NCBI GenBank assembly: GCA_964016885.1
Contig: OZ024744.1
Span: 101,060,001 to 101,124,000 of the forward strand
DNA: 64,000 nucleotides
From: Eledone cirrhosa
Lineage: Eukaryota
Direction of reading: 5' to 3'
Each line of letters starts with the position of its first letter. Positions within the stretch are counted from its first letter, which is position 1. The translations under genes and the position numbers were made by a program. Positions 6,001 to 57,400 of the stretch are shown one piece after another. The notes beneath the pieces are model-generated. The model made no database searches. It saw only the letters and a list, made by a program, of their open reading frames with translations, and was not told the DNA's origin.

Positions 6001-7550
6001 TAAAGTTATTGTATATAGTTCCTATTTTGGACAGGGACTGTTGTCAGCTCCCATTTGGTGTAAAGGCTAACACTAAAGTTATTGTATATAGTTCCTATTT
6101 TGGACAGAGACAGTTGTCAGCTCCCATTTGGTGTAAAGGTTAACACTAAAGTTATTATATATAGTTCCTAATTTGTACAGAGACTGTTGTCAGCTCCCAT
6201 TTGGTGTAAAGGTTAACACTAAAGTTATCGTATATAGTTCCTAATTTGTACAGAGACTGTTGTCAGCTCCCATTTGGTGTAAAGGTTAACACTAAAGTTA
6301 TTGTATATAGTTCCTAATTTGGACAGAGGCTGTTGTCAGCTCCCATTTGGTGTAAAGGTTAACACTAAAGCTATTGTATATAGTTCCTATTTTGGACAGA
6401 GGCTGTTGTCAGCTCCCACTTCGTGTAAAGGTTAACACTAAAGTTATTGTATTTAGTTCCTAATTTGGACAGGGACTGTTGTCAGCTCCCATTTGGTGTA
6501 AAGGTTATCACTAAAGTTATTGCATATAGTTGCTAATTTAGACAGGGACTGTTGTCAGCTCCCATTTGGTGTAAAGGTTAACACTAAAGTTATTGTATAT
6601 AGTTCCTAATTTGTACAGAGACTGTTGTCAGCTCCCATTTGGTGTAAAGGCTAACACTAAAGTTATTGTATATAGTTCCTATTTTGGACAGGGATTGTTG
6701 TCAGCTCCCATTTGGTGTAAAGGTTAACACTAAAGTTATTGTATATAGTTCCTAATTTGGACAGGGACTGTTGTCAGCTCCCATTTGGTGTAAAGGTTAA
6801 CACTAAAGTTATATATAGTTCCTAATTTGGACAGAGACTGTTGTCAACTCCCATTTGGTGTAAAGGTTATCACTAAAGTTATTGTATATAGTTCCTAATT
6901 TAGACAGGGACTGTTGTCAGCTCCCATTTGGTGTAAAGGTTAACACTAAAGTTATTGTATATAGTTCCTAATTTGGACAGAGACTGTTGTCAGCTCCCAT
7001 TTACTGTAAAGATTAACACTAAAGTTACTATATATAGTTCCTAATTTGGACAGAGACTGTTGTCAGCTCCCATTTGGTGTAAAGGTTAACACTAAAGCTA
7101 TTGTATATAGTTCCTAATTTGGACAGGGACTGTTGTCAGCTCCCATTTGGTGTAAAGATTAACACTAAAGTTATTGTATATAGTTCCTAATTTGGACAGA
7201 GACTGTTGTCAGCTCCCATTTGGTGTAAAGGTTAACACTAAAGCTATTATATATAGTTCCTAATTTGGACAGAGACAGTTGTCAGCTCCCATTTGGTGTA
7301 AAGATTAACACTAAAGCTATTGTATATAGTCCCTAATTTGGACAGAGACTGTTGTCAGCTCCCATTTGGTGTAAAGGTTAACACTAAAGTTATTGTATAT
7401 AGTTCCTAATTTGGACAGGGACTGTTGTCAGCTCCCATTTGGTGTAAAGTTTAACACTAAAGTTATTATATATAGTTCCTAATTTGGAAAGGGACAGTTG
7501 TCAGCTCCCATTTGGTGTAAAGGTTAACACTAAAGTTATTGTATATAGTC
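1..7550. repeat. 73-bp tandem satellite array, left segment (~103 monomers; truncated by the window start)
   Basis: TCAGCTCCCATTTGG recurs at 1, 74, 147 and onward (period 73). Monomers differ from consensus by about 0-5 substitutions. A 71-bp variant (TA deleted from GTATATAG) recurs. Confidence 0.99.
7547..7550 (+). other. Left target-site duplication AGTC
   Basis: AGTC directly precedes TGTAGCG. Removing the element plus one AGTC restores GTATATAGTCCCTAATTTGG, a monomer variant common elsewhere in the array. Confidence 0.93.
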
Positions 7551-7628
7551 TGTAGCGGTTGTCTCCCTTGTTTTGATTAGGATCTAGACGGGAAGTGGAA
7601 CCCTTTCTGCAACTTCCGGTCAGAGCCC

Positions 7629-7635
7629 TATAAAA
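7629..7635 (+). promoter_or_regulatory. Putative LTR TATA box (copy at 9360-9366)
   Basis: CC-TATAAAA lies about 80 bp into the LTR. A pyrimidine-rich, initiator-like stretch (TTCCTTTCTCTCTTT) follows about 22-35 nt downstream. Confidence 0.65.
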
Positions 7636-7849
7636 CTAACAACTTTAAGCTTCCTTTCTCTCTTTGCCTTTTCGGCACCAGGTCAAGAGTCTTCTCATTT
7701 GGCTCTGCCATTAATTTGGCCAACAGGCGCCTGGCCATAGCCAGGCGCCCTCTGCCAGCCGCGTTTGCCTGGCAATCAAAACGGTAACTACTAACTTTGT
7801 TTCATTCTAACATCTATCTTTGACATGTCAAGTATTCTATCTACCCTTA

Positions 7850-7855
7850 ATTAAA
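7850..7855 (+). terminator. Putative polyadenylation signal ATTAAA in the LTR (functional copy would be 9581-9586)
   Basis: ATTAAA about 60 nt from the LTR end, followed by CA dinucleotides and a GT/T-rich tract (TGTCTCGTTTTGTT). Confidence 0.5.
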
Positions 7856-7917
7856 TATTATATACACAAACCATGTCTCGTTTTGTTACATTCATACAAC
7901 CAGTATCCTCGCTATAT

Positions 7918-7935
7918 TGGTAACCCTGACGTGAT
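7918..7935 (+). promoter_or_regulatory. Primer binding site complementary to the 3' end of tRNA-Trp(CCA)
   Basis: TGGTAACCCTGACGTGAT versus the canonical tRNA-Trp PBS TGGTGACCCCGACGTGAT (as in avian leukosis virus): 16/18, starting 1 nt after the LTR end. Confidence 0.92.
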
Positions 7936-7949
7936 ACGAACACGCAGCC
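7918..7949 (-). other. tRNA-Trp-derived 3' fragment (positions ~45-76 including CCA); not a tRNA gene
   Basis: The minus strand reads GGCTGCGTGTTCGTATCACGTCAGGGTTACCA. The recalled metazoan tRNA-Trp 3' end is GGCTGCGTGTTCGAATCACGTCGGGGTCACCA (29/32). The T-arm is present; the anticodon and D arms are absent. Confidence 0.85.
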
Positions 7950-8132
7950 GTTCATCGCTATAAGTGGTCACCCCCAAAAAAAGAAAAAAATAGCACATCT
8001 GGTTTTGTGAGTAACATTACGAATACACAGCAAATTTAGCGACAAACTATGAAAATACTCAAGGACACGCACACACGCACATGTGGAATTCGCACAGACA
8101 TACTTTTTCTCTCACGCATCAATTAACTGTCG

Positions 8133-8267
8133 CATTTCACCAATATATATATATATGTTTCTCGTTTCTTACAACGAACACTTTCAAAACAAAAAAAACA
8201 TTTCACGATATATATATATGTTTCTCGTTTCTTACAACGAACTCTTTCAAAACACAAAAAAAAAAAA
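8133..8267. repeat. Two-copy ~66-bp tandem duplication inside the element
   Basis: CATTTCAC..(AT)n GTTTCTCGTTTCTTACAACGAAC[A/T]CTTTCAAAAC(A)n begins at 8133 and again at 8199. Confidence 0.9.
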
Positions 8268-8832
8268 AGAAATTTGATATTCTTTAAAAAACATTTCAAC
8301 AGGAACATTTATTTTCGATGAACCATTGCCTTTTGTTCTTCGTTTTCTTCATTGTTCAAGTTTTTTTTTTTTTTTTTTCAAAAAGTTCACACCTATAATT
8401 ATGCTGATTGAAGCCTTTCTTTTTCATCATTGTCACTTTCAAAATTGCACTATCATTTTCTCGCGCGTTAGAAATATTTTTTTTTCAACCTTGTATTGGC
8501 ACGTGTAGGCAGCATAAATTCTCGATTCACTGAGATGTCTCTACTCACAGACAGCCGCACGCCATTTATCACCAGGGATTCTTCAGCCTTAAGCTATATT
8601 CTTCTATTTGCCGGTTTATAAATTTACAATGTAAATTTACCGTTGATAACCGCGCATTTATTAAGAATGCTTATTTCTCTGGTCGCTGGCCTCTTGACCC
8701 TTCCAGGTCAACGCATTCTCAACATCGACCATCAACTTCGGCTGCTATTTCTAGCACTTTGCGCAACTCATTTTTTCTAAGTAAATTTTTTTTACTGTGA
8801 ATTTAAACACCGAATACGCTCACTCAGCGAGA

Positions 8833-8870
8833 CAACAGCAGCAGCAACAGCAATATAACAGCAACAGCAA
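8833..8870. repeat. Imperfect CAG/CAA trinucleotide microsatellite
   Basis: CAACAGCAGCAGCAACAGCAATATAACAGCAACAGCAA. Confidence 0.8.
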
Positions 8871-9269
8871 TACATCAATACAGCTTCACCAAAGCCAGAG
8901 AATTCATTTTTGCAGCACTCTTCCTGTGAGAAAATCCATTCGGAGGTTGGAAATTTCACGATATACCACAGAACAGAAACCACCTGCATTCATTCTCTGG
9001 AACACATTCTTTCCTGCTGTCATGTGATTGCACACCTGTGAACTATATTTTGAACTTTGAGCTCTTCTATTACTTTTACTTTATTACATTGTATCTTTGG
9101 GTGATGGATAAATGGATGTCCAGTCGTTCTCTGGCCAAGAGCGGTTGGCTACCTTGATATCTATCATTGATTTTTCCAAACATTCTTTTGTCGTAATTTT
9201 CATGCCTGTTACAACATTCTCGCCAACTTGCTACATATTTTCATTTCGATTTTTATACACTAAAATTCT

Positions 9270-9278
9270 GGCGGGAGG
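9270..9278 (+). promoter_or_regulatory. Polypurine tract (plus-strand primer), slightly degenerate
   Basis: GGCGGGAGG followed by TTA and then the TG of the 3' LTR. It is G-rich within AT-rich surroundings. Confidence 0.75.
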
Positions 9279-9281
9279 TTA

Positions 9282-9647
9282 TGTAGCGGTTGTCTCCCTT
9301 GTTTTGATTAGGATCTAGACGGGAAGTGGAACCCTTTCTGCAACTTCCGGTCAGAGCCCTATAAAACTAACAACTTTAAGCTTCCTTTCTCTCTTTGCCT
9401 TTTCGGCACCAGGTCAAGAGTCTTCTCATTTGGCTCTGCCATTAATTTGGCCAACAGGCACCTGGCCTTAGCCAGGCGCCCTCTGCCAGCCGCGTTTGCC
9501 TGGCAATCAAAACGGTAACTACTAACTTTGTTTCATTCTAACATCTATCTTTGACATGTCAAGTATTCTATCTACCGTTAATTAAATATTATATACACAA
9601 ACCATGTCTCGTTTTGTTACATTCATACAACCAGTATCCTCGCTATA
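9282..9647 (+). repeat. 3' LTR (366 bp)
   Basis: Direct copy of 7551-7916 at offset 1731. Differences: G7729/A9460, A7737/T9468, C7846/G9577. Confidence 0.97.
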
Positions 9648-9651
9648 AGTC
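9648..9651 (+). other. Right target-site duplication AGTC
   Basis: AGTC directly follows CGCTATA of the 3' LTR, and the satellite continues in phase. Confidence 0.93.
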
Positions 9652-48449: not shown

Positions 48450-51400
48450 TGGACAGAGACTGTTGTCAGCTCCCATTTGGTGTAAAGGTTAACACTAAAG
48501 TTATTGTATAGTTCCTAATTTGGACAGGGACTGTTGTTAGCTCCCATTTGGTGTAAAGATTAACACTAAAGCTATTATATATAGTTCCTAATTTGGACAG
48601 AGACTGTTGTCAGCTCCCATTTGGTGTAAAGGTTAACACTAAAGTTATTGTATAGTTCCTAATTTGGACAGAGACTGTTATCAGCTCCTATTTGGTGTAA
48701 AGGTTAACACTAAAGTTATTGTATATAGTCCCTAATTTGGACAGAGACAGTTGTCAGCTCCCATTTGGTGTAATGGTTAACACTAAAGTTATTGTATATA
48801 GTTCCTAATTTGGACAGAGACTGTTGTCAGCTCCCATTTGGTGTAAAGGTTAACACTAAAGTTATTGTATAGTTCCTAATTTGGACAGGGACTGTTGTTA
48901 GCTCCCATTTGGTGTAAAGGTTAAAACTAAAGCTATTATATATAGTTCCTAATTTGGACAGAGACTGTTGTCAGCTCCCATTTGGTGTAAAGGTTAACAC
49001 TAAAGTTATTGTATAGTTCCTAATTTGGACAGGGACAGTTGTCAGCTCCCATTTGGTGTAAAGGTTAACACTAAAGTTATTGTATATAGTTCCTAATTTG
49101 GACAGAGACTGTTGTCAGCTCCCATTTGGTGTAAAGGTTAACACTAAAGTTATTGTATATAGTTCCTAATTTAGACAGGGACTGTTGTCAGCTCCCATTC
49201 GGTGTAAAGGTTAACACTGAAGTTATTGTATATAGTTCCTAATTTGGACAGGGACTGTTGTCAGCTCCCATTTGGTGTAAAGGTTATCACTAAAGTTATT
49301 GTATAGTTCCTAATTTGGACAGGGACAGTTGTCAACTCCCATTTGGTGTAAAGGTTAACACTAAAGTTATTGTATATAGTTCCTAATTTGGACAGGGACT
49401 GTTGTCAGCTCCCATTTGGTGTAAAGGTTAACACTAAAGTTATTGTATATAGTTCCTATTTTGGACAGGGACAGTTGTCAACTCCCATTTGGTGTAAAGG
49501 TTAACACTAAAGTTATTGTATATAGTTCCTAATTTGGACAGGGACTGTTGTTAGCTCCCATTTGGTGTAAAGATTAACACTAAAGCTATTATATGTAGAT
49601 CCTAATTTGGACAGGGACTGTTGTCAGCTCCCATTTGGTGTAAAGGTTAACACTAAAGTGATAGTATATAGTTCCTATTTTGGACAGGGACTGTTGTCAG
49701 CTCCCATTTGGTGTAAAGGTTAACACTAAAGTTATTGTATAGTTCCTAATTTGGACAGCGACAGTTGTCAGCTCCCATTTGGTGTAAAGCTTAACACTAA
49801 AGTTATTGTATAGTTCCTAATTTGGACAGGGACTGTTGTCAGCTCCCATTTGGTGTAAAGGTTAACACTAAAGTTATTGTATATAGTTCCTATTTTGGAC
49901 AGGGACTGTTGTCAGCTCCCATTTGGTGTAAAGGTTAACACTAAAGTTATTGTATATAGTTCCTAATTTGGACAGAGATTGTTGTCAGCTCCCATTTGGT
50001 GTAAAGGTTAACACTAAAGTTATTGTATATAGTTCCTAATTTGGACAGAGATTGTTGTCAGCTCCCATTTGGTGTAAAGGCTAACACTAAAGTTATTGTA
50101 TATAGTTCCTATTTTGGACAGGGACTGTTGTCAGCTCCCATTTGGTGTAAAGGCTAACACTAAAGTTATTGTATATAGTTCCTATTTTGGACAGGGACTG
50201 TTGTCAGCTCCCATTTGGTGTAAAGGCTAACACTAAAGTTATTGTATATAGTTCCTATTTTGGACAGGGACTGTTGTCAGCTCCCATTTGGTGTAAAGGT
50301 TAACACTAAAGTTATTGTATATAGTTCCTAATTTGGACAGAGACAGTTGTCAGCTCCCATTTGATGTAAAGGTTAACACTAAAGTTATTGTATATAGTTC
50401 CTAATTTGGACAGAGACTGTTGTCAGCTCCCATTTGGTGTAAAGGTTAACACTAAAGTTATTGTATAGTTCCTAATTTGGACAGGGACTGTTGTTAGCTC
50501 CCATTTGGTGTAAAGATTAACACTAAAGCTATTATATATAGTTCCTAATTTGGACAGGGACTGTTGTCAGCTCCCATTTGGTGTAAAGGTTCACACTAAA
50601 GTTATTGTACATAGTCCCTAATTTTGACAGGGACTGTTGTCAGCTCCCATTTGGTGTAAAGGTTAACACTAAAGTTATTGTATATAGTTCCTAATTTGGA
50701 CAGGGACTGTTGTCAGCTCCCATTTGGTGTAAAGGTTAACACTAAAGTTGTATATAGTTCCTAATTTGGACAGGGACTGTTGTCAACTCCCATTTGGTGT
50801 AAAGGTTAACACTAAAGTTATTATATAGTTCCTAATTTAGACAGGGACTGTTGTCAGCTCCCATTTGTTGTAATGGTTAACACTAAAGTTATTGTATATA
50901 GTTCCTAATTTGGACAGAGACTTGTCAGCTCCCATTTGGTGTAAAGCTTAACACTAAAGTTATTGTATAGTTCCTAATATGGACAGGGACTGTTGTCAGC
51001 TCCCATTTGGTGTAAAGGTTAACACTAAAGTTATTGTATATAGTTCCTAATTTGGACAGGGACTGTTGTCAGCTCCCATTTGGTGTAGAAGTTTAACACT
51101 AAAGTCATTATATATAGTTCCTAGTTTGGACAGGGAGTGTTGTCAGCTCCCATTTGGTGTAAAGGTTAACACTAAAGTTATTGTATATAGTTCCTAATTT
51201 GGACAGGGACTGTTGTCAGCTCCCATTTTGTGTAAAGGTTAACACTAAAGTTTTTGTATATAGTTCCTAATTTGGACAAAGACTGTTGTCAGCTCCCATC
51301 TGGTGTAAATGTTAACACTAAAGTTAGTCTATATAGTTCCTAATTTGGATAGGGACTGTTGTCAGCTCCCATTTGGTGTAAAGGTTAACACTAAAGTTAT

Positions 51401-54400: not shown

Positions 54401-57400
54401 TTGGACAGGGACTGTTGTTAGCTCCCATTTGGTGTAAAGATTAACACTAAAGCTATTATATGTAGTTCCTAATTTGGACAGGGACTGTTGTCAGCTCCCA
54501 TTTGGTGTAAAGGTTAACACTAAAGTGATAGTATATAGTTCCTATTTTGGACAGGGACTGTTGTCAGCTCCCATTTGGTGTAAAGGTTAACACTAAAGTT
54601 ATTGTATAGTTCCTAATTTGGACAGCGACAGTTGTCAGCTCCCATTTGGTGTAAAGCTTAACACTAAAGTTATTGTATAGTTCCTAATTTGGACAGGGAC
54701 TGTTGTCAGCTCCCATTTGGTGTAAAGGTTAACACTAAAGTTATTGTATATAGTTCCTATTTTGGACAGGGACTGTTGTCAGCTCCCATTTGGTGTAAAG
54801 GTTAACACTAAAGTTATTGTATATAGTTCCTAATTTGGACAGAGATTGTTGTCAGCTCCCATTTGGTGTAAAGGTTAACACTAAAGTTATTGTATATAGT
54901 TCCTAATTTGGACAGAGATTGTTGTCAGCTCCCATTTGGTGTAAAGGCTAACACTAAAGTTATTGTATATAGTTCCTATTTTGGACAGGGACTGTTGTCA
55001 GCTCCCATTTGGTGTAAAGGCTAACACTAAAGTTATTGTATATAGTTCCTATTTTGGACAGGGACTGTTGTCAGCTCCCATTTGGTGTAAAGGCTAACAC
55101 TAAAGTTATTGTATATAGTTCCTATTTTGGACAGGGACTGTTGTCAGCTCCCATTTGGTGTAAAGGTTAACACTAAAGTTATTGTATATAGTTCCTAATT
55201 TGGACAGAGACAGTTGTCAGCTCCCATTTGATGTAAAGGTTAACACTAAAGTTATTGTATATAGTTCCTAATTTGGACAGAGACTGTTGTCAGCTCCCAT
55301 TTGGTGTAAAGGTTAACACTAAAGTTATTGTATAGTTCCTAATTTGGACAGGGACTGTTGTTAGCTCCCATTTGGTGTAAAGATTAACACTAAAGCTATT
55401 ATATATAGTTCCTAATTTGGACAGGGACTGTTGTCAGCTCCCATTTGGTGTAAAGGTTCACACTAAAGTTATTGTACATAGTCCCTAATTTTGACAGGGA
55501 CTGTTGTCAGCTCCCATTTGGTGTAAAGGTTAACACTAAAGTTATTGTATATAGTTCCTAATTTGGACAGGGACTGTTGTCAGCTCCCATTTGGTGTAAA
55601 GGTTAACACTAAAGTTGTATATAGTTCCTAATTTGGACAGGGACTGTTGTCAACTCCCATTTGGTGTAAAGGTTAACACTAAAGTTATTATATAGTTCCT
55701 AATTTAGACAGGGACTGTTGTCAGCTCCCATTTGTTGTAATGGTTAACACTAAAGTTATTGTATATAGTTCCTAATTTGGACAGAGACTTGTCAGCTCCC
55801 ATTTGGTGTAAAGCTTAACACTAAAGTTATTGTATAGTTCCTAATATGGACAGGGACTGTTGTCAGCTCCCATTTGGTGTAAAGGTTAACACTAAAGTTA
55901 TTGTATATAGTTCCTAATTTGGACAGGGACTGTTGTCAGCTCCCATTTGGTGTAGAAGTTTAACACTAAAGTCATTATATATAGTTCCTAGTTTGGACAG
56001 GGAGTGTTGTCAGCTCCCATTTGGTGTAAAGGTTAACACTAAAGTTATTGTATATAGTTCCTAATTTGGACAGGGACTGTTGTCAGCTCCCATTTTGTGT
56101 AAAGGTTAACACTAAAGTTTTTGTATATAGTTCCTAATTTGGACAAAGACTGTTGTCAGCTCCCATCTGGTGTAAATGTTAACACTAAAGTTAGTCTATA
56201 TAGTTCCTAATTTGGATAGGGACTGTTGTCAGCTCCCATTTGGTGTAAAGGTTAACACTAAAGTTATTGTATATAGTTCCTAATTTGGACAAAGACTGTT
56301 GTCAGCTCCCATCTGTTGTAAAGGTTAACACTAAAGTTATTGTATATAGTTCCTAATTTGGACAGGGACTGTTGTCAGCTCCCATTTGGTGTAAAGGTTA
56401 ACACTAAAGTTATTGTATATAGTTCCTAATTTGGACAGGGACTGTTGTCAGCTCCCATTTGGTGTAAAGGTTAACACTAAAGTTATTGTATATAGTTCCT
56501 AATTTGGACACAGACAGTTGTCAGCTCCCATTTGGTGTAAAGGTTAACACTAAAGTTATTGTATATAGTTCCTAATTTGGACAGCGACAGTTGTCAGCTC
56601 CCATTTGGTGTAAAGGTTAACACTAAAATTATTGTATATAGTTCCTAATTTGGACAGAGACTGTTGTCAACTCCCATTTGGTGTAAAGGTTAACACTAAA
56701 GTTATTGTATATAGTTCCTAATTTGGACAGAGACTGTTGTCAACTCCCATTTGGTGTAAAGGTTAACACTAAAGTTATTGTATATAGTTCCTAATTTGGA
56801 CAGAGACTGTTGTCAGCTCCCATTTGGTGTAAAGGTTAACACTAAAGTTATTGTATATAGTTCCTAATTTGGACAGGGGTTGTTGTCAGCTCCCATTTTG
56901 TGTAAAGGTAAACACTAAAGTTATTGTATATAGTTCCTAATTTGGACAGGGACTGTTGTCAGCTCCCATTTGGTGTAAAGGTTAACACTAAAGTTATTGT
57001 ATATAGTTCCTAATTTGGACAGGGACTGTTGTCAGCTCCCATTTGGTGTAAAGGTTATCACTAAAGTTATTGTATATAGTTCATAATTTGCACAGAGACT
57101 GTTGTCAGCTCCCATTTGGTGTAAAGGTTAACCCTAAAGTTATTGTATATAGTTCCTAATTTGGACAGAGACTGTTGTCAGCTCCCATTTGGTGTAAAGG
57201 TTAACACTAAAGTTATTGTATATAGTCCCTAATTTGGACAGAGACTGTTGTCAGCTCCCATTTGGTGTAAAGGTTAACACTAAAGTTATTGTATATAGTT
57301 CCTAATTTAGAGAGGGACTGTTGTCAGCTCCCATTTGGTGTAAAGGTTAACACTAAAGTTATCGTATATAGTTCCTAATTTGGACAGAGACTGTTGTCAG

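Follow-up and report, generated by a model that had tools for sequence, protein, structure and literature searches.

The window analysed here is a 64,000-nucleotide stretch of the Eledone cirrhosa genome (contig OZ024744.1, positions 101,060,001 to 101,124,000 of the forward strand). It consists almost entirely of a 73-bp tandem satellite (>800 units, some of them 71 bp long) and contains a single insertion, an LTR element of 2097 bp at 7551-9647. Small irregular spots were seen in the satellite array near 51078-51144 and 55945-56011. In the 3.0 Gb genome 1439 candidate close copies of the element were detected, and the best 40 of the 1439 score 97-100%. The primer binding site (PBS) and the other features of the insertion are as follows:

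7547..7550, forward strand: 5′ target-site duplication (TSD) of 4 bp in the 73-bp satellite, with the identical four bases at 9648-9651
7551..7916, forward strand: 5′ LTR of 366 bp with the termini TGT...ATA, three differences from the 3′ LTR
7899..7921, forward strand: predicted U5-PBS hairpin (7899-7906 with 7914-7921, centroid structure), covering PBS bases 1-4
7918..7935, forward strand: PBS positions 1-18 (tRNA-Trp 76-59), mismatches at 7922 (position 5) and 7927 (position 10)
7936..7936, forward strand: PBS position 19, A for T, facing tRNA A58
7937..7949, forward strand: over-extension of 13 nt, the perfect complement of tRNA-Trp 57-45 (G57, C47 isodecoder)
7950..7964, forward strand: duplicate of the U5 end of the LTR (its final ~15 nt) together with the 2 nt that separate LTR and PBS
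7965..7975, forward strand: relic of the ancestral 11-nt PBS with two changes relative to the tRNA complement, intact in older copies and in 69 single-PBS copies
7976..9267, forward strand: non-coding internal region, 74-87% identical to the 11-nt subfamily
9268..9281, forward strand: polypurine tract 5′ of the 3′ LTR, identical in 20 of the 21 full copies
9282..9647, forward strand: 3′ LTR
9648..9651, forward strand: 3′ target-site duplication

The window holds no stop-free frame of 120 aa, and the element is accordingly non-coding. The 4-bp TSD seen here is exact in 16 of the 21 full family copies. A tRNA-Trp PBS, a 4-bp TSD and the TGT...ATA termini are all shared with the CsRn1 clade of Ty3/gypsy elements (PwRn1, AgCR), in which the termini are TGT...ATA or TGT...AAA (PMC2582038, in the part of the text available). 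These features point to a CsRn1-like, non-autonomous element, an assignment made by PBS, TSD and termini rather than by an RT tree. The CHCC Gag of the clade is found here in coding Trp-primed elements and not in the ORF-less window element. The published PBS of the clade is approximately 12 nt long (PMC2582038, same part), whereas the non-coding window element carries 32 nt and a relic 11-nt site.

The U5-PBS region as a whole folds no better than its shuffles (z = -0.77), and a special fold pairing both PBS copies was dismissed on account of this shuffle-level folding. The five to six bases that immediately precede the last seven of the LTR are hypervariable (7897-7910 in the window; L001-L030, L199-L238) in copies that are otherwise 98-99% identical. 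They coincide with the loop of the predicted hairpin listed above, and error-prone minus-strand initiation may be their cause.

The 32 bases at 7918-7949, starting one base past the 5′ LTR, are the complement of host tRNA-Trp positions 76-45, and an earlier note made from the sequence alone had correctly described them, including the A at 7936. Three PBS positions, 5, 10 and 19, are mismatched to the most frequent G57 form of the host tRNA-Trp (locus L046, CCA included), and only 5 and 19 to a variant host gene with A67 (L031). The mismatch opposite A58 on which the note had dwelt is present, but against the common G57 tRNA it is accompanied by those at 5 and 10, on which the note is silent. 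The stated run of complementarity past position 58 was borne out, with 13 of 13 bases beyond position 19 matching the host tRNA (chance ~1.5e-8 at a fixed place) and the match stopping at tRNA 45. ARAGORN and Rfam detected no tRNA in the window because the tRNA copy is too short. The duplicated LTR end and the second, decayed PBS at 7950-7975 had gone unmentioned in the note.

A search of the genome with the 3′ half of tRNA-Trp gave 71 matches, five of which are retro-copies lacking the 5′ half. The other 66 are gene-like; about half of them were inspected as loci and the others were classed by their position in tandem clusters. A58 is encoded in 65 of the 66, in agreement with the expectation that the host tRNA carries A58 and matches the extension. 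The only T58 gene has A57, and thus no host copy supplies the T58 and G57 combination of the window; a host T58 tRNA as the origin of A19 was ruled out on this ground. Most host tRNA-Trp genes lie in two tandem clusters (G000:C4:353.39-353.49 Mb and C4:277.40-277.44 Mb), the larger of which is mostly of the A57 isodecoder and holds the one T58 copy (L216).

With positions 19-32 left free in the search pattern, the family junction was found at 536 places in the genome. Position 19 of these copies is A in approximately 510 and G in 8, these eight being all the family copies without A19, so that neither T nor C occurs. When counted by the position-19 pattern, 517 places had A19 (a few of them from other families) and 58 had another base. 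A private mutation of the window copy, which the note had named as a possible objection, was rejected since A19 is family-wide.

The second PBS that follows the 32-nt site is intact in older copies, which predicted an ancestor with the second site alone, and 69 such copies were found. They form a sister subfamily with the LTR end, a single 11-nt PBS and the same internal sequence, the internal region being common to 14 of 15 fetched copies at 74-87% identity. The LTR pairs of the 11-nt subfamily are 87-98% identical (13 partial alignments) and those of 21 extended copies have a median identity of 99.4% (0.6% divergence). The window form corresponds to the 11-nt ancestor with 47 nt inserted, namely the tRNA copy and the duplicated LTR end, followed by the old PBS, where the direction from 11 to 32 nt rests on the LTR-pair ages and the published 12-nt PBS of the clade rather than on a rooted tree of the two subfamilies.

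The duplicated LTR end (7955-7962) tracks the true end (7909-7916), both having the old form in old copies and the new form in young ones, and some intermediate copies are mixed. This suggests repeated template switching between the LTR end and its duplicate. In the family copies L155 (G000:C1:315541400-315543300) and L201 the 32-nt unit and the LTR-end duplicate are present twice in tandem.

The upstream site bears traces of the primer itself. In the first 100 of the 536 copies listed, positions 5 and 10 read A/T in 78, the tRNA-like G/C in 11, G/T in 10 and A/C in 1, giving G5 in 21, C10 in 12 and T19 in none. These states were placed on a tree of 71 copies made without the PBS (76 were aligned and five long branches dropped), in which G5 copies had been oversampled on purpose. 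G5 was scattered (19 changes versus 19.7 with shuffled labels) and so was G19 (6 changes for 6 copies); position 10 was partly clustered (9 changes versus 12.2, p = 0.003) and a spacer variant was clustered (5 changes versus 7.7). The pattern fits an upstream site repeatedly overwritten by the tRNA, with an effect fading from position 5 to position 10 and absent at position 19. Recombination between co-packaged RNAs could alternatively cause the scatter of G5. No T19 copy exists in the family, which indicates that long over-extension is rarely inherited there. The A-to-G change at position 19 was found in 3 of 100 copies and at the other A sites of the extension in 0 of 400 (p = 0.008), and the RT perhaps occasionally inserts a single purine opposite m1A58 and then stalls, in which case A19 may postdate the extension. 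Ty1 and Ty3 inherit their PBS strictly (PMC7472051, as far as the accessible text goes), a strictness that the window's gypsy-type family seems to lack, and it is suggested that some gypsy elements, unlike Ty1/Ty3, inherit part of the PBS from the tRNA.

Over-extension is not confined to this family. The genome contains 410 perfect 18-nt Trp PBSs, and among the first 30 of these 18 end at 18-19 nt as in an m1A-type arrest, 9 extend to at least 29 nt, 2 to 22 nt, and 1 has an insertion at position 19. The note had taken 18 nt as the normal length of a PBS, which holds for these 18 of 30 sampled sites but not for the baseline of the window family, which was 11 nt. A purine at position 19 of the 18-nt PBSs was looked for by eye in 18 copies from approximately 14 families, too few to judge. 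Extensions by tRNA copy are present in many LTR families of the genome. A coding family bears its own 32-nt extension, with T19, in approximately 19 loci, independently of the window family. Over-extension is a recurrent accident of the Trp-primed elements in this genome; the note's proviso that extended sites might be real but not novel thus applies in part, as they are common among Trp-primed elements, the comparison having been made within this one genome.

The six coding Trp-primed loci share with the window element only the PBS and one weak 37-nt match, so that none is tied to it as an autonomous helper; the CHCC motif of Gag (CX2HX9CX3C) occurs in 3 of the 6, and L242 has the domain order RT-RNase H-integrase, features which, taken with the 4-bp TSD and the TGT...ATA termini, point to the CsRn1 clade. 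The 32-nt PBS and gag start of the coding family were found behind different LTR ends in L124/L243 (G000:C5:79388260), L066 and L063, which suggests recombination between Trp-primed families.

The errors made during such events were tallied with a search pattern that left positions 19-26 unconstrained and was anchored at 27-33; it gave 39 matches in the genome. One was a chance match and 11 belonged to three amplified groups (3 T/4 A, T/T and C/A at position 19); both classes were set aside and 27 singletons were kept. Position 19 was wrong in 7 of these 27 independent events, as opposed to 13 of 502 at the other positions (p = 2e-5). All three wrong bases occur (3 G, 3 A, 1 C), and transversions were seen in 6 of 27 at position 19 versus 3 of 502 elsewhere. 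A second hotspot lies opposite G37, with 2 of 6 wrong (p = 0.009; both are among the 13 of 502). The background is uneven, as positions 27 and 28 have three transitions each in the 27. The singletons end at tRNA 39-35 in 14 cases and at 29-27 in 6, none going beyond 27, and among these 27 events, which were chosen for length, neither errors nor ends are piled at tRNA 54-55. tRNA-Trp is taken by us to bear m1G37 and a methylated G26. The base m1A58 has been reported on human tRNA-Trp (PMC6380271, available part) and on primer tRNAs generally (PMC13191261, available part), and its signature is RT arrest together with misincorporation (PMC4787781, available part).

The hotspot depends on the isodecoder, with position-19 errors in 6 of 10 A57 events and 1 of 17 G57 events (p = 0.004). 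Three A57 events with A19 and T20 are possible products of the T58 gene; when they were dropped the hotspot was 4 of 24 (p = 0.005), and the contrast between isodecoders was 3 of 7 versus 1 of 17 (p = 0.06). Read-through of m1A was said in the earlier note to misincorporate typically, but 20 of the 27 read-throughs here carry the correct T19, so that passage usually requires no misincorporation, a result that fits copying of under-methylated tRNA.

A recurrent C-to-T change was observed at PBS position 28, opposite G49 (L162, L168, L171, L178, L140, L099, L245), in 3 of the 27 singletons and in others outside this set; the site is not a CpG and no host gene found matches it. In L187/L152 (G000:C10:53056951) and L163/L067 the over-extended tRNA copies fold back, one turning back at the anticodon stem, where its own sequence follows in inverted copy, and another running into an inverted LTR end, and these copies carry errors opposite both A58 and G37.

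In our view the 32-nt site likely arose when an over-extended copy of the primer became fixed, with a probable error at m1A58. The events would be as follows. A58 of the host tRNA, and G37 as well, would be methylated and the RT of the clade would normally halt at 18 nt. In the founding event the plus-strand strong-stop DNA would have over-run m1A58 and copied 32 bases of the primer. This over-long DNA would have been transferred onto the 11-nt PBS, leaving an unpaired 3′ flap, and after extension of the minus strand over U5 the flap may have slipped back ~15 nt onto U5 by short homology. Synthesis resumed on U5 would then have copied the LTR end together with the old PBS a second time. The new upstream site presumably took over priming while the downstream site decayed, and A19 would persist because nothing resets position 19 and m1A pairs with no base.

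Junctions of the same kind recur in unrelated elements as a tRNA copy followed by an LTR end. Among the singletons, the element's own LTR end follows in direct orientation in 3 of 27 and inverted in 2 of 27, and L087, L093/L104, L155 and L201 have a further PBS after the LTR-end copy. Two findings count against this explanation: 22 of the 27 junctions have no LTR-end copy by the test used, so these events must have rejoined elsewhere, and the first five bases of the LTR-end duplicate in the family are unlike most ancestral LTR ends. The earlier note had read the site as a fossil of RT read-through on a mature CCA-tailed tRNA. The CCA match and the hotspot at position 19 favour this, but the extension and A19 may have arisen separately: only 1 of 17 singletons of the G57 class, to which the window copy belongs, has a mismatch at position 19, which makes a founding misincorporation the rarer outcome, and A19 could have appeared later or by ordinary substitution.

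Taken further, the extension would have been copied faithfully with T19 from an unmethylated tRNA and A19 would be an ordinary substitution of the founder lineage, tolerated since m1A58 leaves position 19 without a pairing partner. The T19 state of 20 of 27 independent read-throughs, and of 16 of 17 of the G57 isodecoder, agrees with this, and two amplified groups that vary at position 19 within one junction (3 T/4 A; C/A) show that this position can change later. We nevertheless regard it as unlikely. The change from T to A is a transversion, of a kind seen in only 3 of 502 at other positions, the 13 sites of the extension show no other fixed difference, no T19 family copy survives, and the excess of G19 noted above suggests that the RT keeps inserting purines at position 19.

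It was also considered whether the tRNA copy had been inserted by another route, either the retroposition of half a tRNA by a LINE-type mechanism or a recombination involving a tRNA gene or pseudogene. A precedent is the Culex element cqgypsy_1, where a 26-nt LTR duplication around tRNA copies was interpreted as a target-site duplication (PMC3286476, text available in part). Here, however, all copies are antisense and begin at CCA, which is absent from the inspected tRNA genes, and the inspected copies follow LTR-end-like sequence from 15 upstream groups. There is no poly(A) and the ends of the copies are ragged (26-50 nt), and this route is very improbable.

A separate question is why the extension was retained. 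It may be a selected device that pairs with the T arm and the variable loop and out-competes the helper for the primer, with the tolerated mismatches at positions 5 and 10 perhaps blunting silencing by tRNA fragments. Such a reading concerns retention and is compatible with an origin by over-extension. The predicted net binding to the common G57 tRNA, with A58 held unpaired, is -34.5 kcal/mol for the window site, -21.3 kcal/mol for an 18-nt site of another family, and -9.0 and -1.8 kcal/mol for two 11-nt ancestors; the energy models, however, also paired bases outside the PBS. The extended subfamily is younger and approximately 8 times more numerous than the 11-nt one (536 versus 69), yet elsewhere the two are 15-25% divergent, and an 18-nt site would by itself account for much of the gain. 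The coding family has independently acquired an extension of the same length. The extension spans tRNA 48-55, the anti-PAS segment (PMC6380271, available part), and mismatched PBSs predominate in ETn/MusD (PMC7472051, accessible text). Against selection, the extension had 9 variants in 1400 sites and an internal control 4 in 1400 (p = 0.27), thus no excess conservation, in a test of low power whose control came from a younger subset and in which most variants are post-insertion, and most Trp-primed elements do without an extension (18 of 30, as given above). The claim that the site was kept because longer pairing aids primer capture is therefore plausible in predicted energy and finds no echo in the conservation of the extension. 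A selected device is possible, though we lean against it; the success of the family may be owed in part to a stronger predicted binding of the primer.

Several known systems resemble parts of this picture. The primer over-extension sequence (POS) of lentiviruses and spumaviruses is a short, kept complement of the primer tRNA past the 18-nt PBS, and HIV RT makes minor products that run past A58 to 55, 54 and 37 (strong-stop P2-P5), the one ending at 37 being described as non-functional (PMC13191261; PMC8599865, both in part). The window site likewise continues the primer complement directly past PBS position 18, and here too products that pass A58 end at later, presumably modified positions, 37 among them. 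The POS, however, reaches only tRNA 55-54, the second stop in the T loop, whereas the window family reaches 45 and singletons up to 27, and unlike in HIV the over-long products integrated, one of them founding more than 500 copies. A 2002 paper by Muthuswami is reportedly a cited reference on the lentiviral POS and the HIV-1 strong-stop products.

The Culex cqgypsy_1 (Osvaldo lineage) is a gypsy element in which, likewise, a tRNA copy with its CCA lies where LTR and PBS meet and the LTR end is directly duplicated, but it carries a whole tRNA dimer, is known in 3 copies and was read as a transposition-like insertion, with no modification signature reported in the part of the paper available (PMC3286476). 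In ETn, MusD and IAP the most frequent PBS is mismatched at two positions, and fully matching sites recur across the tree and were read as tRNA copying; those elements differ in being retroviral, with 18-nt sites and mismatches off the modified bases (PMC7472051, accessible text). The bipartite PBS of Ty1 and Ty3 similarly pairs with the T arm of the primer, in split segments as opposed to the contiguous copy of the window family with one mismatch at A58 (PMC5371799, in part). Retrotransposon PBSs are generally 8-18 nt long (PMC13524379, in part).

Our literature search, which did not reach older subscription papers, returned no genomic tally of primer over-extension or its errors, and no paper that used long primer copies as a record of tRNA modification. 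The component parts are known already; new are the pair of ancestor and derived form, the statistical signature of modification in genomic DNA, and the success of a presumed dead end. The role of m1A58 as an in vivo strong-stop signal, and the outcome when RT passes it, have been known mainly from HIV and from in vitro work. The genomic copies described here amount to an in vivo tally for a gypsy-type RT, in which most events stop at 18 nt and some go further, A58 and G37 are where errors are made, and products of excess length are still able to integrate. We offer, as a tentative and still somewhat doubtful proposal, that LTR retrotransposons record the germline tRNA modifications (m1A58, G37 and G26, by isodecoder) as a natural tRNA-seq, the stop sites and the spectra of misincorporation being preserved in over-extended primer copies, and that through one dead-end product a non-coding family acquired a primer trap of 32 nt, with which it replaced its 11-nt ancestor. 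If this is general, the modification state of germline tRNAs could be read from the assemblies of non-model animals, and the clean pair of 11-nt and 32-nt forms makes the effect of PBS length on a parasite of a parasite directly testable.
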